A model generated the notes under the pieces. That model made no database searches and was not told the origin of the DNA. It saw only the letters and a program-made list of their open reading frames with translations. DNA of 64,000 nucleotides, from assembly GCF_024502345.1 (NCBI RefSeq), contig NZ_JALDNN010000001.1; one strand, written 5' to 3'. This DNA is from Escherichia coli (GTDB taxonomy: Bacteria > Pseudomonadota > Gammaproteobacteria > Enterobacterales > Enterobacteriaceae). Below, in pieces: positions 2,421 through 56,242 of this stretch (positions are counted from its first letter, which is position 1; each line of letters begins with the position of its first letter). A program made the position numbers and the translations under genes.

Positions 2421-3759
2421 CATAAGCGCTAACTTAAGGGTTGTGGTATTACGCCTGATATGATTTAACGTGCCGATGAATTACTCTCACGATAACTGGT
2501 CAGCAATTCTGGCCCATATTGGTAAGCCCGAAGAACTGGATACTTCGGCACGTAATGCCGGGGCTCTAACCCGCCGCCGCGAAATTCGTGATGCTGCAAC
2601 TCTGCTACGTCTGGGGCTGGCTTACGGCCCCGGGGGGATGTCATTACGTGAAGTCACTGCATGGGCTCAGCTCCATGACGTTGCAACATTATCTGACGTG
2701 GCTCTCCTGAAGCGGCTGCGGAATGCCGCCGACTGGTTTGGCATACTTGCCGCACAAACACTTGCTGTGCGCGCCGCAGTTACGGGTTGTACAAGCGGAA
2801 AGAGATTGCGTCTTGTCGATGGAACAGCAATCAGTGCGCCCGGGGGCGGCAGCGCTGAATGGCGACTACATATGGGATATGATCCTCATACCTGTCAGTT
2901 CACTGATTTTGAGCTAACCGACAGCAGAGACGCTGAACGGCTGGACCGATTTGCGCAAACGGCAGACGAGATACGCATTGCTGACCGGGGATTCGGTTCG
3001 CGTCCCGAATGTATCCGCTCACTTGCTTTTGGAGAAGCTGATTATATCGTCCGGGTTCACTGGCGAGGATTGCGCTGGTTAACTGCAGAAGGAATGCGCT
3101 TTGACATGATGGGTTTTCTGCGCGGGCTGGATTGCGGTAAGAACGGTGAAACCACTGTAATGATAGGCAATTCAGGTAATAAAAAAGCCGGAGCTCCCTT
3201 TCCGGCACGTCTCATTGCCGTATCACTTCCTCCCGAAAAAGCATTAATCAGTAAAACCCGACTGCTCAGCGAGAATCGTCGAAAAGGACGAGTAGTTCAG
3301 GCGGAAACGCTGGAAGCAGCGGGCCATGTGCTATTGCTAACATCATTACCGGAAGATGAATATTCAGCAGAGCAAGTGGCTGATTGTTACCGTCTGCGAT
3401 GGCAAATTGAACTGGCTTTTAAGCGGCTCAAAAGTTTGCTGCACCTGGATGCTTTGCGTGCAAAGGAACCTGAACTCGCGAAAGCGTGGATATTTGCTAA
3501 TCTACTCGCCGCATTTTTAATTGACGACATAATCCAGCCATCGCTGGATTTCCCCCCCAGAAGTGCCGGATCCGAAAAGAAGAACTAACTCGTTGTGGAG
3601 AATAACAAAAATGGTCATCTGGAGCTTACAGGTGGCCATTCGTGGGACAGTATCCCTGACAGCCTACAAAACGCAATTGAAGAACGCGAGGCATCGTCTT
3701 AACGAGGCACCGAGGCGTCGCATTCTTCAGATGGTTCAACCCTTAAGTTAGCGCTTATG
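2421..3759 (+). mobile_element. IS186 insertion sequence
   Basis: Perfect 23-bp terminal inverted repeats cataagcgctaacttaagggttg at 2421-2443 and 3737-3759; flanked by 10-bp direct repeat ggagtgatcc at 2411-2420 and 3760-3769. Confidence 0.9.
2470..3588 (+). CDS. insL: IS186 transposase InsL
   Basis: 372-aa ORF inside the IS186 inverted repeats. Confidence 0.9.
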   Translation: MPMNYSHDNWSAILAHIGKPEELDTSARNAGALTRRREIRDAATLLRLGLAYGPGGMSLREVTAWAQLHDVATLSDVALLKRLRNAADWFGILAAQTLAVRAAVTGCTSGKRLRLVDGTAISAPGGGSAEWRLHMGYDPHTCQFTDFELTDSRDAERLDRFAQTADEIRIADRGFGSRPECIRSLAFGEADYIVRVHWRGLRWLTAEGMRFDMMGFLRGLDCGKNGETTVMIGNSGNKKAGAPFPARLIAVSLPPEKALISKTRLLSENRRKGRVVQAETLEAAGHVLLLTSLPEDEYSAEQVADCYRLRWQIELAFKRLKSLLHLDALRAKEPELAKAWIFANLLAAFLIDDIIQPSLDFPPRSAGSEKKN

Positions 3760-3850
3760 GGAGTGATCCCCGCCACTTTTCAGGTGCTCGCATATCTTCA
3801 ACGCACCCTAATTTTACCCAAGCCTGCCCACGGGCAGGCTTTTGGGGAGG

Positions 3851-4981
3851 TTAGCGGGTCAGGTCGTCAAAAAACTTCTTCACACCATCAAAGAAGCTCT
3901 TTGAGCGCGGGCTGTTGTGCTCACCGGTTGGGCCACCGAAGCTTTCTTGCAGCTCTTGCAGCAGCTGTTTCTGCTTCTCGTTCAGGCCTACCGGTGTTTC
4001 GACGACAACGCGGCACAGCAAATCACCCTGTGCGCCACCGCGGACAGACTTGACGCCTTTACCGCGCATACGGAAAAGCTTACCGGTCTGGGTTTCGCCA
4101 GGCACTTTCAGTTTGACGCGACCATCAAGGGTCGGTACTTCGATTTCGCCACCCAGCGCCGCCATAGCGAAGTTGATCGGGACTTCGCAATAGAGGTTGT
4201 TGCCTTCACGCTCGAAAATCGGGTGCTGTTTAACCTGAACCTGAACGTACAGATCGCCTGCCGGTGCGCCATGCTCGCCCGCTTCACCTTCGCCCGCAAG
4301 ACGGATGCGGTCTCCAGTGTCCACCCCTGCCGGGATTTTAACGGACAGCGTTTTGCTGCGCTCAACACGACCATGACCATGACATTTGTTGCACGGATCT
4401 TTGATCAGCGTACCGCGGCCCTGACAGTGTGGACAGGTCTGCTGTACAGCGAAGAATCCCTGACGCATCTGCACCTGACCAGAACCATGACAGGTCGGAC
4501 AGGTCTGCGGCTGTGTACCTGGTTTTGCACCGCTACCGTGGCAAACGTCACACTCTTCCAGAGTCGGAATGCGGATCTCTTTGGTCACGCCACGTACAGC
4601 TTCTTCGAGGGTGAGCTCCATGTTATAGCGTAAATCAGCACCGCGCGCCGCACGTTGACGACCACGTCCGCCGCCAAAAATATCGCCGAAAACGTCACCA
4701 AAAATATCGCTGAAGTCTGCGCCGCCGCCAAAACCGCCGCCGCCCATGCCGCCTTGCTCAAACGCAGCATGACCATACTGATCGTATGCCGCACGTTTTT
4801 GCGAGTCGGTCAGAACTTCATAAGCTTCCTTGATCTCTTTAAATTTCGCCTCGGCCTCTTTGTCACCCTGGTTACGGTCCGGGTGGTATTTCATGGCCAG
4901 GCGTTTGTAGGCCTTTTTGATTTCACGCTCTTCCGCTGTTTTGGAAACGCCTAAAATCTCGTAATAATCTTGCTTAGCCAT
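3851..4981 (-). CDS. dnaJ: Chaperone DnaJ (Hsp40)
   Basis: [13 protein letters not shown]-domain, Gly/Phe-rich region, four CxxCxGxG zinc motifs; start set at the MAKQDYY methionine inside the longer ORF. Confidence 0.95.
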
Positions 4982-5069: not shown

Positions 5070-6986
5070 TTATTTTTTGTCTTTGACTTCTTCAAATTCA
5101 GCGTCGACAACATCGTCATCTTTCGCGTTGTTTGCAGAAGCATCAGCACCGGCAGTCTGCTGCTGGGCATGTTGCTGCTGGGCGATTTCCATCAGTTTCT
5201 GGGAAACCTGTGCCAGCTCCTGCATTTTCGCTTCGATAGCGGCTTTGTCTTCACCTTTCAGAGCAGTTTCCAGTGCAGTCAGTGCAGACTCGATAGCAGT
5301 TTTGTCGTCAGCCGGCAGTTTGTCGCCTGCTTCTTCAACCTGCTTACGGGTGCTGTGCAGCAGATGGTCGCCCTGGTTGCGAGTCTGTACCAGCTCTTCA
5401 AACTTACGGTCAGCTTCGGCGTTAGCTTCTGCGTCGCGTACCATTTTCTGGATTTCATCTTCGTTCAGACCAGAAGAAGCCTTGATGGTGATCTTCTGCT
5501 CTTTACCGCTGTTTTTATCTTTCGCGGAAACGTGCAGGATACCGTCAGCATCGATATCGAAGGTAACTTCGATCTGCGGCATGCCGCGCGGTGCCGGGTT
5601 GATACCATCCAGGTTGAACTGACCCAGAGATTTGTTATCAGCCGCACGTTTACGTTCACCCTGCAGCACATGGATGGTTACCGCAGACTGGTTGTCTTCA
5701 GCGGTAGAGAACACCTGGCTGTGCTTGGTCGGGATAGTGGTGTTTTTCGCGATCAGCGTCGTCATCACACCGCCCATGGTTTCGATACCCAGAGACAGCG
5801 GGGTAACGTCCAGCAGCAGTACGTCTTTCACGTCACCAGTCAGAACACCCCCCTGAACAGCAGCACCGATTGCTACAGCTTCGTCCGGGTTAACGTCTTT
5901 ACGCGGCTCTTTACCAAAGAACTCAGCAACTTTCTTCTGAACCATTGGCATACGAGTCTGACCACCAACGAGGATAACGTCGTCGATATCAGATACGGAC
6001 AGGCCAGCGTCCTGCAGTGCAACTTTCAGCGGCTCAATGGAACGGTTTACCAGATCTTCAACCAGGCTTTCCAGTTTCGCACGAGTCACTTTGATGTTCA
6101 TGTGTTTCGGACCGGTCGCATCTGCAGTGATGTACGGCAGGTTAACGTCGGTCTGCTGAGCGGAAGACAGTTCGATTTTCGCTTTTTCTGCCGCTTCTTT
6201 CAGGCGCTGCATTGCCAGCGGATCGTTGCGCAGGTCAATGCCCTGATCTTTCTTGAATTCTTCAACCAGGTAGTTGATCAGACGGCTGTCGAAGTCTTCA
6301 CCACCCAGGTGGGTATCACCGTTGGTAGCCAGAACTTCGAAGGTTTTTTCGCCGTCAACTTCGTCGATTTCGATAATAGAAATATCGAAAGTACCACCAC
6401 CCAGGTCATAAACCGCGATAGTACGGTTGCCAGTACCTTTGTCCAGACCGTAAGCCAGCGCAGCTGCGGTCGGTTCGTTGATGATACGTTTTACTTCCAG
6501 ACCAGCGATACGGCCTGCGTCTTTGGTTGCCTGACGCTGAGCATCGTTAAAGTATGCCGGTACGGTGATAACAGCTTCAGTTACCGGTTCACCCAAGTAA
6601 TCTTCAGCGGTTTTCTTCATTTTTTTCAGCACTTCAGCAGAGATCTGCGGCGGTGCCATTTTCTGGCCTTTAACTTCGACCCATGCGTCGCCGTTATCAG
6701 CAGCAATAATTTTGAACGGCATGATGGAAACATCACGCTGTACTTCTTCGTCCTGGAAGCGGCGGCCAATCAGGCGTTTAATCGCAAACAGGGTGTTTTG
6801 CGGGTTCGTCACTGCCTGACGTTTAGCCGGCTGACCAACCAAAGTTTCACCATCCTGGGTATAGGCAATGATAGAAGGCGTGGTGCGATCGCCTTCGGCG
6901 TTCTCCAGCACACGAGGAGTGGTGCCATCCATAATCGCTACACAAGAGTTGGTAGTACCCAGGTCGATACCAATTATTTTACCCAT
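5070..6986 (-). CDS. dnaK: Chaperone DnaK (Hsp70)
   Basis: 638-aa [21 protein letters not shown]... Confidence 0.97.
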
Positions 6987-50176: not shown

Positions 50177-50293
50177 TATGTACAATCATATGTACAAAGA
50201 AAAATTCATGCCGCTGATTGTACATTTTGGAGGTATCAGAGCATAGCAGAACATGATCAGTAGGTGTATTTGTAGCCAAAGAACATTTGTACA
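50177..50293. repeat. Cluster of four TGTACA hexamers (two as TATGTACAA spaced 12 bp)
   Basis: TGTACA at 50179, 50191, 50219 and 50288, far above chance; lies between the prfC start and the dinI-like gene. Confidence 0.6.
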
Positions 50294-50346
50294 TGCAGCA
50301 ATCTTTGTTCTATTGACACTGTTTATTCATACAGTTAAAAATAACA

Positions 50347-50362
50347 CTGTATACAAACACAG
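50347..50362 (+). promoter_or_regulatory. LexA (SOS) box upstream of the dinI-like gene
   Basis: ctgtatacaaacacag = CTGT-N8-ACAG, 16 bp upstream of the start codon. Confidence 0.75.
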
Positions 50363-50377
50363 TGTAGAGGGATTTTT

Positions 50378-50626
50378 ATGCGTATTGAGATCTGCATAGC
50401 CAAAGAGAAAATGACTAAAATGCCAAACGGTGCTGTGGATGCGTTAAAGGAAGAATTAACTCGACGCATCAGTAAGCGTTATGACGATGTAGAGGTGATC
50501 GTAAAAGCCACCAGCAACGATGGCCTTTCTGTTACGCGCACCGCCGATAAAGATTCAGCTAAAACTTTTGTTCAGGAAACTCTGAAAGATACCTGGGAGT
50601 CTGCTGACGAGTGGTTTGTTCACTAA
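50378..50626 (+). CDS. DinI-family DNA-damage-inducible protein
   Basis: 82-aa [31 protein letters not shown]...[15 protein letters not shown]; C-terminus resembles DinI (QETWESADDWF). Confidence 0.85.
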
Positions 50627-51052
50627 TTAACACGTAAAATCGGTAACGGCTGGAAATCATTCAATACTCGCACTATCGGAAGTTCACCAGCCAACCGCAG
50701 CACGTTCTTGCATACGACGTGTCTGCGGTTTTTCAACCATTCAGATACAGCACTCTCATCACATTCATTCTTCCGCATTAAAGTATATATGACCATATCA
50801 CCTTAATATTTTTCTTCTTCAGATAAAAATTGTTATCTATGTATACTTTTAAACCGAATCCGTGTAGAGTCTCTACCTAAGTTAGTTCGCAGCTACCCCT
50901 TCAGTTTGCGCCATTAACCTCCTGACTTTTGCCGCTATCTGTAAGCATTCCTGTATACCTGAAACTACAGGGTTCATCTACGAACTTTAAGAACACCCAG
51001 GATAAAAATTGTCAACTATATTATATATAACACCATACTAATTCGAGGCTAT

Positions 51053-51166
51053 ATGAACAGCATACTGATAATCACTTCACTACTTATCATATTCAGCATT
51101 TTTGGTCATGCTCTAATAAAATTAGGGATTGGCATATCCAATAACCCGGACAAAACCGATGTATAA
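51053..51166 (+). CDS. Hypothetical 37-aa hydrophobic peptide
   Basis: [37 protein letters not shown]; GAGG 5 nt upstream of the ATG; promoter-like AT-rich element upstream. Confidence 0.35.
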
Positions 51167-51234
51167 GTCAACATATCCTGAATCAGACATACAATATTGC
51201 AATGAAAACCAATAATATTTTAAGGAATATCTTC

Positions 51235-51468
51235 ATGAAATCAAAAGACACCCTAAAGTGGTTCCCTGCGCAGCTTCCTGAAGTCAGAATTATCCTGGGA
51301 GATGCTGTCGTGGAAGTAGCAAAACAGGGAAGACCTATCAATACCAGAACATTGCTTGATTACATTGAAGGAAACATAAAGAAAAAGTCATGGCTGGATA
51401 ACAAAGAATTATTACAAACAGCGATATCAGTTCTTAAAGACAACCAAAATTTAAATGGTAAAGTGTAA
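51235..51468 (+). CDS. ydfK: YdfK/YnaE-family prophage protein (cold-shock-inducible family in K-12)
   Basis: 77-aa MKSKDTLKWFPAQLPEVRIILGDAVVEVAKQGRPINTRTLLDYIEG...; AGGAA RBS. Confidence 0.7.
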   Translation: MKSKDTLKWFPAQLPEVRIILGDAVVEVAKQGRPINTRTLLDYIEGNIKKKSWLDNKELLQTAISVLKDNQNLNGKV

Positions 51469-51847
51469 TACCTCCCCTGAAAAATAATTTTTCAATGCAT
51501 TAAAAAAATATCAACAACTACGTTATTCCGCAACAACCTACTTTTTTTACCATTTTTCCACTTTAACAACATTTTGCTCCACTTTTCCACGACCAAACAA
51601 CTTAAAATCTGGTTAAAATAACATACAACACTATTATTCGTCTTCCTCGAGTCCGCCCGGAGTTCGAAAAACAAACCGAGTTAAAGCCATTTTTCAAAAA
51701 ATCGATTTTTGGTTACACCAAAATTACGGGACTGCATCCGAATTCGTTTATTTTCGAACGTATACATACAAATATGTACAATAATAAGCGAAATAATTTT
51801 TGGATATGCATTATGATATGTACACCAATTTCGTATAGAGTCTCACT

Positions 51848-52438
51848 ATGTCTCGAATTTTTGCTTACTGTCGGATATCAACGCTGGATCAGACCCCCGA
51901 AAATCAACGCCGGGAAATCGAAAGTGCAGGTTTTAAAATCAAACCTCAGCAAATAATCGAAGAACACATTAGCGGCTCAGCAGCAACCAGTGAGCGTCCT
52001 GGTTTTAACCGGTTGCTTGCTCGCCTGAAATGTGGTGATCAATTGATTGTGACAAAACTGGATCGCCTTGGTTGTAATGCAATGGATATCAGGAAAACAG
52101 TGGAACAACTGACCGAAACAGGTATCAGAGTGCATTGCTTAGCATTGGGGGGCATTGACCTGACCAGTCCAACAGGAAAAATGATGATGCAAGTAATTTC
52201 AGCAGTCGCTGAATTTGAACGAGACCTTTTACTTGAACGCACTCATTCCGGGATAGTAAGAGCCCGGGGCGCAGGGAAACGTTTTGGTCGACCACCTGTG
52301 TTAAATGAAGAACAGAAACAGGTGGTATTCGAACGAATTAAGTCAGGTGTAAGTATAAGTGCCATTGCCCGGGAATTCAAAACCTCGCGGCAAACCATTT
52401 TAAGAGCCAAAGCAAAACTTCAGACACCTGACATATAA
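51848..52438 (+). CDS. pin: Serine recombinase, Pin-like DNA invertase (PinQ/PinR type)
   Basis: 196-aa [15 protein letters not shown]...; resolvase/invertase catalytic N-domain plus C-terminal HTH. Confidence 0.85.
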
Positions 52439-52535
52439 AAAATAATCTCGGTGTGAGATGCTTTACGTCTTCCAAGCCCCCTTCCTTGCCGTAAATGGAA
52501 AGATACATCTAATTATAGAATTTATATGTTTTACC

Positions 52536-53111
52536 CTACGGCAGTGCTGGCCATTCAATATCCTGTGCAGTTGACGTATCAACACGGTTCAGCAATACCC
52601 GATACTTTTTCCATGCTTCCAGCAACGAGATTTCTTCCTCCGTTGCAATTTCCAGATCTGCAGCATCCTGAAGCGGCGCAATATGCTCACTGGCTACCTG
52701 CATCAGGTTGTTTTTTGTTTCTTCCGCCTCCCGGATCCGGAACAGTTTTTCTGCTTCCGTATCCTTCACCCAGGCTGTGCCGTTCCACTTCTGAAACTCC
52801 CCTTCCGGGGATAACCAAGTGACATTTTCCGGTAATGGGCCAAGTTCAGAAATAAATAACGCGTCGCCGGAAGCCACGTCATAGACGGTTTTACCCCGAT
52901 GGTCTTCAACGAGATGCCACGATGCCTCATCACTGTTGAAAACAGCCACAAAGCCAGCCGGAATATCTGGCGGTGCAATATCGGTACTGTTTGCTGGCAG
53001 ACCTGTATGAGGTGGAATATATGCATCACCTTCACCAATAAATTCATTAGTTCCGGCCAGCAGATTATAAATTGTTATGGTCCGTGGTTGTTCACTCATT
53101 CTGAAATCCAT
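52536..53111 (-). CDS. tfa: Tail fibre assembly protein Tfa
   Basis: 191-aa from the ATG preceded by an AGGTG SD; ...[37 protein letters not shown]... as recalled for TfaQ/TfaR. Confidence 0.85.
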
Positions 53112-53119
53112 GTTCACCT

Positions 53120-54022
53120 CTACTTAATATCAGAGACAGAATATTGTTTATTGAACGTATGGGTGTGAGCACCAATAACGATGCTACTTCCGTGGCTATG
53201 TGCGCCAGAGATGACATTACCTACGGGATTTTCTGGATTAATCCGGTGTATATGCGAACCAGGGCGAAACCGGTTATTAGCCTGATGTTGTATCAGTACA
53301 TCATCAGCCTGATGTTCAGGGTTAATACAGACCTGCCCGGAACGTGAGCAATACGTCCGATAATCGCCGCATCCAATATATTTAGTATCCGCATAACGGC
53401 AAACAGAATTACCCGGACAGTATGCATATGTGCCAAATACTGCCGACTGGCGGGATTGTGCGTATTCCCAGTTAATTGATTCTGTTTTTTTATTAAAGTT
53501 ATCCCATGCCTGCTTCATCTGCCGGGCAACACTTTCAAACGGCACCTGACCACATCCGGCTCCCATTGCAGGGAATACCACCGTTTTTATTTTCCTGTCT
53601 GTCGTTGCGTGTTTATTGTGCTGAAAGATGGCAAGCAGAGCGGCCCAGGTTGCGTTATATACAGCGTCTGTTCCGTCAATTGTCAGCGGAACACGCATTG
53701 TTGGCGCATGTACCAGCCAGGGATGATGATTATGCCCCGTTTCAATAACAAATGCAGAACCTACAGGCTGCTCGCCGAGATATTCACGAAGAATATGATT
53801 CTGAACGCGGGACTGTAACTGAGTACCGAAGAATGCGGTAATGGCGGCATCAACACCGCCATCCATCAGGCCGAAACTGTTTGCCGCACTTACCATGCAG
53901 TCAAATTCCCTGATTGTTTCAAATGGCTTTCCGACAATATTCACATTATCTGCATTTGCGAATACCCGCTTAAATGCTTCAGCCATTTCTGTTACTGGTG
54001 CAGAAAGAATGAGCGTAATCAT
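53120..54022 (-). CDS. Macrodomain protein with tail-fibre-like His-x-His C-terminal region
   Basis: Macrodomain motifs [42 protein letters not shown]; C-terminal ...[18 protein letters not shown]; ATG overlaps the stop of the upstream stf fragment. Confidence 0.6.
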
Positions 54023-54186
54023 GCAAGCCTCACAATATAGTTAAATGCGATGTTTTTGACGGTGTTTTCCGCGTTACCAGCAGCGTTAACGGTGATGGTG
54101 TGTCCATGTGACCCTATCGCAACGGAGTGCGTATGAGCACCAATACCGACAGTATGCGCGTGTGCACCTGCAGATACTGCTGTAAA
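54019..54186 (-). pseudogene. Side tail fibre (Stf) C-terminal fragment
   Basis: ...[51 protein letters not shown]; joined out of frame to the terminase fragment upstream. Confidence 0.7.
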
Positions 54187-54892
54187 AACGCATGAAATGT
54201 GCCGACTCGTTAGCGGCTTTTTCGATCTGGCAGGAGCCTTTGATTTTAGGCGTCGAGCCGCGAATGGATTTTGGCCATACAGAGCCCTCAATACGTTTAT
54301 CCCCCAGCAGGGTTGGCGAACCCTCTTTTTCAACATCCGGTTCGAACGAGGAAAGTTCGTCATAGCAGACCACATCCACGGATTTTTCACGGTAGTTTTT
54401 GGCGGCAGCGCCGCCCAGGCACCATAAACCGACGCCCGATGAAAAGCGTTTCAGCGTGAGGGTATTATCACGATGTTTACGACCCAGCCATGGGGAAAGG
54501 TCTTTCAGGCATGGCACGTCCCTAATCGTCGTCTCCACGTGAGACTTCATAAAATCTTCAGCGGCAGAATCCGTGGGCTGAAAAAGCAGACTGTTTCGGG
54601 ATTTATGCTCAATAAAATACCCGACCACCCCCAGCAACATCTTTGTATAGCCAACACGGGCAGATTTAATCAGATTAACTGTGCGGATCTGATCATTCCC
54701 CATACTGTTCATGATGGCGATCTGGAACGGCAGCGTTTTCCATTCGCCGTCACCGTATGAGGATTCTTTCGGCAGATAATAATACTGATCAGCCCATTCA
54801 ACTGCCGTCATCGGTACAACCCTGACCAGAGGCTGCAGCGCAACCGAAACGGCAGCCATCAGATTATTCAGTTGTTGCTCTGATATATTCAT
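54185..54892 (-). pseudogene. Terminase large subunit (lambda gpA-like) N-terminal fragment, about 235 codons
   Basis: MNISEQQLNNL...PMTAVEWADQYYYLPKESSYGDGEWKTLPFQ...[41 protein letters not shown] closely parallels lambda gpA 1-215, then similarity stops. Confidence 0.85.
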
Positions 54893-55370
54893 CCAGCAAA
54901 TCCGGTAATTTATCCCCTGCCCGCGCACACTGATTTGCGCCCTTCGCAATAAGGGTTTTCAGATGGTCAAGATGACGTGGCGTTAAATCCGGGAACTGTC
55001 GCTGCATGGATAACGGAATAGAATCAAGCGTACTGGACAATGCCATCGCCAGCTTGCTGAGGGCGAAAACGCAGAAGTCTGAATCGATGAGCTTACCTTC
55101 GGTTACCTGATTTTTAAGTTTTTGAGCTACGGCCTGTTCTTCTGTCAGTTCAGCTCTGGCCCGAAGCAGCCTTTCCTCCAGATCGCCCCCGTCATCAGGT
55201 GTTCTATGATTGTGTTGTCGCCGCTCGCGATCTATCTCCAGTACAGTTTTAACGTCATAAAAAACTTCCCTCCCCCGACGCTCGACAGGAGGAACGCCCC
55301 ATTTATCAAATGCCTGAACAGAGATACCGATGGAGGAGGCCATATCACTTTTATTCAATAAAAAGGCCAT
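54864..55370 (-). CDS. noh: Terminase small subunit, Nu1-like (Noh)
   Basis: MAFLLNKSDMASSIGISVQAFDKWGV... resembles lambda Nu1; GGAGAGGAG SD; 3' end overlaps the terminase-A fragment start. Confidence 0.8.
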   Translation of the reverse strand: MAFLLNKSDMASSIGISVQAFDKWGVPPVERRGREVFYDVKTVLEIDRERRQHNHRTPDDGGDLEERLLRARAELTEEQAVAQKLKNQVTEGKLIDSDFCVFALSKLAMALSSTLDSIPLSMQRQFPDLTPRHLDHLKTLIAKGANQCARAGDKLPDLLDEYIRATTE

Positions 55371-55797
55371 CTCCTCTCCATAAGTCATCGATAAAAAGCG
55401 ATACAACAACCATGTGTTTTTACAAAACCATTTGATATCATTTAATTTTTTCACATTAATGACATCAAAGCACATCGTAAGGTTGTTGTATTTATTTTAT
55501 TTTCACCTTACTTATCAATTAGATATACCAAACAATTAAACAACAACCACCCCCTCAAAAAATCTCATAAATAGCGAAAAACCGCGAGGTCGCCGCCCCG
55601 TAACCTGTCGGATCGCCGGAAAGGACCCACAAAATGATAATAATTATCATCTACATATCACAACGTGCGTGTACGCCATCAAACCACGTCAAATAATCAA
55701 TTATGACGCAGGTATCGTATTAATTGATCCGCATCAACTTAACGTAAAAACAACTTCAGACAATACAAATCAGCGACACAGAATACGGGACAACCTC

Positions 55798-55989
55798 ATG
55801 TCAACGAAGAACAGAACCCGCAGAACAACAACCCGCAACATCCGCTTTCCTAACCAAATGATTGAACAAATTAACATCGCTCTTGATCAAAAAGGGTCCG
55901 GGAATTTCTCAGCCTGGGTCATTGAAGCCTGCCGTCGGAGACTAACGTCAGAAAAGAGAGCATCTACATCAATCAAAAGTGATGAATAA
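55798..55989 (+). CDS. YlcI/YnfO-family small prophage protein (DUF3950)
   Basis: 63-aa MSTKNRTRRTTTRNIRFPNQMIEQINIALDQKGSGNFSAWVIEACRRRLTSEKRASTSIKSDE. Confidence 0.7.
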   Translation: MSTKNRTRRTTTRNIRFPNQMIEQINIALDQKGSGNFSAWVIEACRRRLTSEKRASTSIKSDE

Positions 55990-56242
55990 TGAATATCCCG
56001 GTTTCTTTACCTCCCCTCCCACCCCGCACAGGACTGGCGAACGTGTGGGACAAATATGTGAGTCATAAACGCCTTATCTTCAGAAATGCAGTTGGCATCC
56101 GAACAGGACGATATTGTAACTTCACCTAATTACGAGGCATTGCAGTAGTTGAATTGTAGTTCTGTATTAGCCTGACAGTGACAGAATGCGATATTGACTC
56201 TGTCACAGGTGAAATAGTTTGAATGGTTAGCAGTTATGGCGA

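Follow-up and report, generated by a model that had tools for sequence, protein, structure and literature searches.

A complete serine recombinase gene, pin, is located next to the tail-fiber assembly gene tfa at the right end of a lambdoid prophage in Escherichia coli (assembly GCF_024502345.1, contig NZ_JALDNN010000001.1). The stretch of 64,000 nucleotides that contains it was analyzed at its full length and is referred to here as the window. A first-pass annotation had described the gene as a Pin-type invertase lacking a recognizable invertible segment, which raises the question of what kind of enzyme is encoded here and on which DNA it acts. Judged from sequence comparison, the locus is likely to be the remnant of an ISSba14-like transposon of the Tn3 family; apparently only its right end is left, comprising res, the resolvase gene tnpR and the right terminal inverted repeat (IRR), so that it is not itself a transposon.

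The recombinase gene was found as described, complete and beside tfa and the fiber genes. Its open reading frame (ORF) is intact; the start at position 51689 assigned to it earlier takes in about 160 bp of upstream DNA.

51848-52438, plus strand: pin (PinQ/PinR-type), 196 amino acids, assigned from its ORF and Pfam domains.

The protein contains a Resolvase domain (PF00239, 4.6e-36) together with HTH_7, and no second serine recombinase was found in the 64-kb window. At the DNA level pin is 99.3% identical to both pinR and pinQ of strain K-12, it has the same gene neighborhood, and RefSeq annotators label many copies of it pinQ or pinR. The gene is the already known PinQ/PinR-type gene of Qin- and Rac-like lambdoid prophages.

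Protein alignments were used to determine the relatives of this enzyme. Identity amounted to 35% with Gin, 34% with Hin, and 32% with gamma-delta resolvase, and matches to solved structures were similarly poor for an invertase (Gin, 103 bits) and a resolvase (gamma-delta, 82 bits). Recombinases linked to transposons reached 83% (locus L029), 77% (L030), and 75% (L031), and the recombinase of locus L034 was 78% identical across all 196 residues without a gap. Homologues at E ≤ 1e-60 were present on 1637 plasmids, most of them 60-85% identical. The four transposon-linked loci are as follows.

L029, E. coli IncK2/Z plasmid: homologue beside a transposase N-terminal pseudogene interrupted by IS600.
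L030, Klebsiella IncFIB plasmid: homologue divergent from a Tn3-family transposase, with a gap of 160 bp.
L031, pJM1 of Vibrio anguillarum: homologue in the position immediately downstream of a transposase of the Tn3 family.
L034, Shewanella baltica plasmid: homologue oriented divergently to a transposase annotated as 'Tn3-like element ISSba14 family transposase'.

Judged from these alignments, the PinQ/PinR-type recombinase is by descent not a member of the Gin/Hin/Cin/Pin family, but kin to the TnpR proteins of Tn3-family (ISSba14-like) transposons. The labels 'DNA invertase' and 'PinR' found on plasmid transposon resolvases and on pin reflect annotation carry-over and not evidence of inversion.

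The DNA upstream of pin was compared with that of seven related res loci (L029, L030, L031, and L034-L037), from which a matrix of 42 half-sites was built. In these loci, 10-bp half-sites of the form [G/A]TG[T/A][A/C]CGAAA occur at fixed offsets, forming a site I of 28 bp and a site II of 34 bp, and a TATAAT hexamer is located between sites II and III. All six half-sites were found in the window at identical offsets (51734+, 51752-, 51774+, 51798-, 51816-, and 51829-), with zero indels over the 105 bp from 51734 to 51838. Their scores range from 5.9 to 11.4 bits, as compared to 8.5-17 bits for sites I and II of the transposon copies.

51734-51761, plus strand: res site I remnant, 28 bp, with half-sites GCATCCGAAT and, on the minus strand, ACGTTCGAAA; both arms weakened.
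51774-51807, plus strand: res site II remnant, 34 bp, with half-sites ATGTACAATA and, on the minus strand, ATATCCAAAA, at offsets +40 and +64 (6.7 and 9.2 bits).
51812-51817, plus strand: -10-like hexamer TATGAT, colinear with TATAAT in L029, L030, L031, and L034-L037.
51816-51838, plus strand: res site III remnant, two minus-strand half-sites GTGTACATAT and CTATACGAAA, at offsets +82 and +95 (9.2 and 11.4 bits).

By this colinearity site I is the ancestral crossover site; its half-site starts are 18 bp apart, exactly as in the transposon copies. Site III is the best-kept subsite and overlaps the -10 element, and a score of at least 11.4 bits is reached at only five positions in the 64-kb window. 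The hexamer TATGAT is a probable promoter element of pin. A promoter and terminator scan called no consensus promoter directly upstream of pin and no terminators, and the -10 assignment therefore rests on homology.

Three further observations concern res and the resolvase clade. Site III in this clade appears to be formed by two half-sites that point the same way and are 13 bp apart, unlike site III of gamma-delta/Tn3. The res-pin units of K-12 Rac (6085-6675 in locus L032) and Qin (3623-4213 in locus L033) are inverted relative to each other and about 200 kb apart; any residual recombination between them would invert the interval, which we take to span the replication terminus region. A 64%-identical homologue with a complete res-like upstream region was found on the Arsenophonus nasoniae plasmid paNv_CAN10 (L037, 3501-4106); the plasmid is phage-like, the homologue is flanked there by terL and a HigA/RelE pair, and a transposase is not annotated. 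This context indicates that the resolvase family also serves replicons other than transposons, probably in multimer resolution.

The similarity to transposon DNA continues beyond the gene. Local alignment of the window with L029 covers 51752-52481 and ends with ...CCAAGCCCCC, which is the outer end (CCCC) of the right terminal inverted repeat of L029; the alignment with L030 begins at 51738. The L029 element is flanked by GGGGTCCGCTTGGAAAACGGAATCCCACGCTAAG... repeats on both ends.

52444-52481, minus strand: IRR, 38-bp right terminal inverted repeat, reverse complement GGGGGCTTGGAAGACGTAAAGCATCTCACACCGAGATT.

This repeat starts 6 bp past the pin stop codon, as it does in L029 and L034, and 27 columns were invariant when it was aligned with both the left and the right repeat of L029 and the right repeat of L034. 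It is the sole match of this kind in the window, where 0.05 would be expected. A left terminal repeat was not found anywhere in the window, and tblastn of the L034 transposase TnpA against the window gave no match better than E = 4. A search for transposon or plasmid homologues of 51469-51760 returned nothing other than chromosomes or prophage-like entries carrying a wrong plasmid label. The colinear res remnant, the gene, and the terminal repeat mark the enzyme as a Tn3-family resolvase, and the earlier designation 'Pin-type' invertase had to be abandoned.

On the tfa side, homology to tfa of phage lambda starts inside the gene, at 52546, and the earliest matches lacking pin (ev099 and mEp332) start at 52530; the intervening 48 bp at 52482-52529 always accompany the res-pin-IRR unit. 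Of 5426 complete E. coli genomes, 2803 contain the unit jointly with some 200 bp of non-coding DNA upstream of it, with up to three copies per genome. It is also carried by active phages, namely HannyBb, Turner, Kati, 2H10, and others; in phages of the HannyBb/Turner type it is located between attP/int and the tail-fiber genes, i.e., in the b region. The unit of HannyBb lies beside a different, unrelated fiber gene and a 3' fragment of tfa only. Since this phage carries the unit without an intact tfa, the adjacency of pin and tfa is positional and not functional.

The catalytic residues of the protein were compared with those of Tn3/gamma-delta resolvase (Y6, R8, S10, D36, R68, and R71). Y7, R9, S11, Asp72, and R73 are present in pin, and the D36 equivalent is Glu across the whole clade. 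The equivalent of R71 is replaced, and this loss is confined to prophage alleles.

52073-52075, plus strand: codon TGT encoding Cys76, which aligns with catalytic Arg71 of gamma-delta/Tn3 resolvase.

The TGT codon is shared by the window, K-12 pinR and pinQ, and the class of locus L019, with CGT or CGC in the transposon copies. L019-L023 make up the second prophage class, 10% divergent in DNA from the class of the window, and likewise encode Cys76. Arg occupies this position in Gin, Hin, and gamma-delta, and in all four aligned transposon-linked copies. Among the 120 closest homologues, 112 have Arg and five have Cys (in the remaining three the motif could not be located); these five entries represent the clusters of the PinQ/PinR and L019 types, with a combined membership of about 3950 sequences. 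Besides Cys76, nine further substitutions are specific to the prophage alleles. Olorunniji and Stark observed that Tn3 resolvase no longer recombines when it carries R71A or R71K and that its strand cleavage is reduced about 1000-fold; binding to site I survived every mutation tested (PMC2794168).

The gene was furthermore examined for signs of decay. The two classes with Cys differ by 34 non-synonymous and 25 synonymous changes, which corresponds to a ratio of non-synonymous to synonymous substitution rates (dN/dS) of 0.38 (binomial P = 0.001 against neutrality); relative to the transposon copies dN/dS is 0.16-0.20. By these ratios, the pin ORF is not decaying and is under purifying selection. 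One allele of the same prfC prophage in an E. coli chromosome (L038, GCA_910593615.1, 6001-6591) is, together with the part of res near its promoter, 93-100% identical to L029 in sliding windows of 60 nucleotides and has prophage flanks; Arg, TATAAT, and a stronger site II right half and site III are restored in it. In sequence this looks like gene conversion between transposon and prophage copies, an exchange which indicates that the two gene pools are still in contact.

Taken together, these results suggest the following explanation. The right end of an ISSba14-like transposon would have survived as res (51734-51838), the gene (51848-52438), and IRR (52444-52481), with tnpA and the left repeat gone, and the unit would be passed on as a block, placed between tfa and attP in the b region of the phage. 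The reaction native to enzymes of this family would be resolution between two directly repeated res sites in cointegrates or multimers. A single orphan res without a partner leads us to expect no rearrangement of the neighboring DNA, and no invertible segment would ever have been attached. With its weakened half-sites in sites I and II and with Cys76, the prophage allele would at best be a feeble recombinase. Pin would still bind the well-kept site III and the right half of site II, which overlap its own -10 element, and would probably thereby repress its own expression; any effect on the P segment of prophage e14 would be exerted in trans. A stranded resolvase end, a decayed upstream res, and a lost arginine would explain why an invertible segment is missing.

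Several points weigh against this explanation. In three of the seven related res regions (L035-L037), no transposase is annotated in the vicinity, which means that resolvases of plasmids or phage-plasmids belong to the recombinase family as well. A search for a lambdoid phage that still carries the complete ancestral transposon yielded only P1/SJ46-type phage-plasmids with different Tn3-family elements, and no empty site, a tfa flank without the unit, was found among phages; hence, the insertion event itself is one that we infer. Autorepression at site III is predicted by analogy with TnpR proteins. By analogy, too, we infer that the R71 result obtained with Tn3 resolvase would carry over to the PinQ/PinR-type protein, the data themselves concerning R71A and R71K in an activated variant and not R71C in a PinQ-type protein. 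Finally, Kirigo et al. (NAR 2025) reported that inversion of the P segment in e14, otherwise about 30%, reached 88% when PinQ was overproduced, and called the enzyme active (PMC12529663); the same effect was claimed for PinR in the preprint of that paper, and phage T2 was reported to be blocked by this inversion in trans. If PinQ itself catalyzes inversion in e14, Cys76 is tolerated and the prophage allele would not be a feeble recombinase.

These reports leave two roles that PinQ may have at e14, that of a catalyst or only that of a modulator of PinE. As a catalyst, the PinQ/PinR-type protein would be an active invertase that works in trans, cutting and rejoining the crossover sites of the e14 P segment and thereby switching tail-fiber-like genes (anti-phage StfE2); such a role is compatible with transposon ancestry and incompatible with a crippled enzyme, and we regard it as possible, if doubtful. 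Apart from the effect of overproduction, it is favored by the finding that T2 survivors carry a P-segment inversion and that deletion of pinQ lowers both inversion and survival (PMC12529663). Residues Ser11, Arg9, Asp72, and Arg73 are intact, and the e14 half-site TTCTCCCAAACC matches the family 12-bp half-site GTGTCCGAAACC at 9 of 12 positions, which makes some interaction of PinQ with e14 plausible. However, the Arg71 equivalent is Cys in PinQ/PinR, and the crossover sites of the family measure 28 bp as compared to 26 bp for those of Gin, Hin, and Pin. Furthermore, the P segment is locked in one orientation in a pinE mutant with pinQ and pinR intact, and overexpression was always carried out in pinE-positive cells, a strain producing PinQ in a ΔpinE background not being listed in Table S4 (PMC12529663). 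In the same study overproduction of PinE gave 49% inversion, approximately as for a reversible catalyst; the 88% obtained with PinQ looks like bias or selection more than simple catalysis. The role of a modulator, to which we likewise give only tentative credence, would make PinQ and PinR crippled resolvases which selection keeps as sequence-specific DNA-binding proteins and which bias PinE-driven inversion to one orientation, either by binding the related e14 crossover sites or by forming mixed complexes with PinE. No e14 sequence is present within the 64-kb window.

The first-pass annotation had also proposed that the target of the enzyme lies elsewhere or that its segment is frozen. As it stated, inverted alternative fiber or tfa copies are absent, no second tfa or fiber copy being found in the window, and a pair of Gin/Hin crossover sites is missing as well: AAACC-NN-GGTTT with up to two mismatches gave 26 matches against 31 expected, none of them between 51165 and 53574. 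The e14 crossover 16-mer is absent from the window, and only chance-level inverted-repeat pairs flank any segment in 50200-56000. Without an invertible segment in cis, any target must lie elsewhere, and this part of the proposal stands. A frozen segment, i.e., pin as the invertase of a once-invertible stf/tfa segment that was fixed by loss of a crossover site and of the alternative fiber genes, could draw on the position of pin beside tfa and stf, just as gin, cin, and pinE adjoin fiber genes, and on PHROGs and phage annotators, who call pin a 'DNA invertase'. In Mu, P1, and e14, however, the 5' end of the recombinase gene abuts the invertible segment, whereas pin has its 3' end toward tfa with the transposon terminal repeat in between. 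A remnant of a crossover site is likewise missing, identity to Gin and Hin is as low as 34-35%, and in HannyBb the unit sits beside an unrelated fiber gene with only a 3' fragment of tfa. In addition, a BLAST survey by the authors of PMC12529663 detected no inversions in Rac or Qin. A frozen segment is already contradicted by these findings, and we consider it extremely improbable.

Alternatively, pin might still be a working resolvase on its own res, acting on dimers of circular phage genomes or on tandem or duplicated prophages that carry the unit. The six half-sites in perfect register without indels over 105 bp would fit such a function, as would an intact ORF under purifying selection in thousands of genomes, the presence of the unit in active phages, and the occurrence of up to three copies per genome. 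The half-sites of sites I and II, however, have dropped to 5.9-9.2 bits as compared to 8.5-17 bits, and Arg71 is replaced by Cys. Inverted sites do not pass the topological filter of resolvases, and the K-12 Rac and Qin copies, being inverted and about 200 kb apart, are therefore no resolvase substrate. A working resolvase thus appears quite improbable here, and the remnant of a transposon end remains our preferred explanation.

A near-perfect palindrome of 18 bp, which had been noticed about 135 bp upstream of pin and put forward as a candidate crossover site, was analyzed separately.

51695-51712, no strand: palindrome caaaaaatcgatttttgg, 8 of 9 pairs matching, ending 136 bp before the ATG and 22 bp before res site I.

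The palindrome exists as reported; its role as a crossover site did not withstand analysis. It lies outside the res homology, one arm only resembles a half-site, its arms span 24 bp end to end and match no res subsite (as compared to 28 bp), and it has no partner in 14 viral contigs. In these contigs, taken from IMG/VR, the palindrome occurs exactly once each and always together with pin. Its right arm GTAACCAAAA (51707-51716, minus strand) scores 6.0 bits, and the left arm fails the half-site matrix. Palindromes of equal quality number 13 in the window as compared to about 6.7 expected, and the probability that 380 bp of this 33%-GC stretch contain one or more is about 0.06; the excess over chance is marginal. 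A test of the palindrome segment as a diverged res copy was not significant (P = 0.19), and a likeness to sites I and III seen by eye was therefore dropped.

It is unlikely, though conceivable, that the palindrome is a functional protein-binding site other than a crossover site, bound by Pin as an extra subsite or by an architectural protein of the host. The dyad is conserved in the aligned related loci, where a single mirrored change from A:T to C:G between the classes preserves it and locus L005 represents a one-sided intermediate. The right arm scores about as high as the site I arms of the window, and palindromes are somewhat enriched in the window as a whole. Against a binding site argue the failing left arm, the span of 24 bp, the lack of significant similarity to res, and the chance of finding such a palindrome in AT-rich DNA, where a second one begins at 51489; moreover, conservation is roughly uniform over the whole region of 300 bp and hence does not single out the palindrome. 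The minus strand of the palindrome, AATCGATTTTTTG, differs by one mismatch from what we take to be the IHF consensus, WATCAANNNNTTR, which we regard as a lead only.

The palindrome is part of a longer non-coding stretch that is preceded by a short segment specific for the class of the window.

51536-51733, no strand: conserved non-coding DNA from ydfK to res, specific to lambdoid prophages, without transposon or plasmid homologue.
51474-51535, no strand: 62-bp segment, present in the class of the window only and absent from second-class phage and viral-contig loci.

The stretch 51536-51733 gave no Rfam match and no convincing ORF; TTTTCCAC motifs recur within it at 51553-51590, and a hairpin-like segment rich in GC is located at 51650-51668. 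The 62-bp segment holds a partial second copy of the stretch comprising the right half of res site II and the -10 element (51481-51503). Local alignment of AAATAATTTTT-CA-ATGCATTA with 51790-51813 gave a score that was reached by none of 1000 shuffles. The second 18-bp palindrome, at 51489-51506, lies inside this segment. The segment may have originated from a duplication or from a second res fragment.

The window is part of the E. coli chromosome. The genes yjjV, yjjU, ytjA, osmY, and prfC are located at 45.3-50.2 kb on the minus strand and are followed by the right end of the lambdoid prophage.

50378-50626: DinI-like gene at the prophage right end.
Between the DinI-like gene and ydfK: small ORF of the YnaM/YnfT type.
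51202-51468: ydfK as listed ORF; the RefSeq ydfK of 234 bp maps to about 51235-51468.
52536-53117, minus strand: tfa, tail-fiber assembly gene (Pfam Caudo_TAP, 3.7e-43), convergent with pin; context, outside the recombinase unit.
53120-54022, minus strand: macro-domain gene between stf and tfa.
54019-54390, minus strand: truncated stf (C-terminal fragment), fused to a terminase large-subunit fragment.

Nu1, a lysis cassette, and the Q antiterminator gene follow beyond the stf/terminase fusion. The layout corresponds to ydfK-pinQ-tfaQ-stfQ of K-12 Qin and ynaE-pinR-tfaR-stfR of Rac; the 5' side of pin is directed toward ydfK and attR and its 3' end toward tfa, with the terminal repeat in between.

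The macro-domain protein consists of 300 amino acids and is of the ADP-ribose-binding/hydrolase type; its gene overlaps the stf stop by 4 nucleotides, and its C-terminal 50 residues or so contain GAHxH repeats resembling the StfR tip. The arrangement stf-macro-tfa was found in only 16 of the 5426 genomes, and many relatives have stf-tfa without the macro-domain gene, which could represent a fiber-tip fusion or an anti-defense passenger. As compared to strain 06-00048, about 23.6 kb of head and tail genes are missing from the prophage. At the deletion junction, at about 54183-54185, a fragment of the terminase large subunit is fused with the C-terminal end of stf, analogous to nohA::stfQ of K-12 Qin; the exact terL'::'stf junction was not found in any complete genome of the collection. 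An ARAGORN scan detected no tRNA, and a GTTCGAA stretch at about 51660 was not recognized as a tRNA fragment. Rfam analysis of 50200-53200 yielded no RNA family upstream of pin; the sole match was IS009, full-length inside the 3' part of tfa (52570-52768, minus strand; 221 bits, gathering score 117), which may represent a genuine RNA or just conserved sequence of tfa.

The unit is present in 2803 of 5426 complete E. coli genomes, and its gene has recently been promoted as the founding member of a 'recombinase-activated' phage defense. Ancestry, res remnant, and Cys76 together make the published mechanism of PinQ directly testable and predict autoregulation at 51812-51838. If the role of a modulator is true, PinQ and PinR would be domesticated 'pseudo-recombinases' serving as directionality factors, and the reported anti-phage effect would not arise from catalysis of their own. 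No stated link between PinR/PinQ and Tn3 was found in the literature searched; descent from a transposon, a res remnant in register, and the change from Arg71 to Cys were likewise absent from that literature, the gene itself being already known.

The closest known counterparts are PinQ (b1545, Qin) and PinR (b1374, Rac) of K-12, which represent effectively the same gene, with 99.3% nucleotide identity, 196 amino acids, and Cys76 in common; the upstream region and the terminal repeat recur in the aligned related loci. Like the prophage of the window, Qin has lost its head and tail genes through a deletion joining a packaging gene to stf. The prophage of the window differs in being located next to prfC rather than at the Rac or Qin sites, in the macro-domain gene between stf and tfa, and in the 62-bp upstream segment (51474-51535). 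The ISSba14-like TnpR proteins of S. baltica pSBAL11703, the Klebsiella IncFIB plasmid, V. anguillarum pJM1, and the E. coli IncK2/Z plasmid pSTEC17_183-b are 75-83% identical to Pin without internal gaps and share the spacing of the three res subsites, the -10 element between sites II and III, and the 38-bp repeat 6 bp past the stop codon. Unlike these elements, the unit of the window lacks tnpA and the left repeat, has weak half-sites and Cys76, and resides in a phage b region and not on a plasmid.

Gamma-delta and Tn3 show the architecture generally known for such elements, which they have in common with the pin-type element: res sites I-II-III upstream of tnpR, a site I of 28 bp with 12-bp arms and 4 central bp, a promoter within res, and 38-bp terminal repeats starting with GGGG, of which the window retains only the right one. 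The pin family differs from them by an identity of only 32%, by the half-site TGT[A/C]CGAAA as compared to TGTCYNNTA, and by Cys in place of Arg71. In common with the Fis-dependent invertases Gin of Mu, Cin of P1, Hin of Salmonella, and PinE of e14, Pin is a small serine recombinase with a C-terminal helix-turn-helix, is encoded beside phage tail-fiber genes, and has the 'IDxTSP' motif before helix E; its half-sites are related to theirs as well. Members of the Fis-dependent invertase family have roughly 60% or more identity with each other and can replace one another. A Fis-bound recombinational enhancer lies within the 5' part of their genes, Fis sites being too degenerate for recognition by sequence. 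The identity of the pin type to PinE is 38% (PMC12529663). Unlike these invertases, pin has neither an inverted pair of 26-bp sites nor an invertible segment and faces the opposite way, and its cognate sites are of the res type, 28 and 34 bp long and arranged with three subsites.

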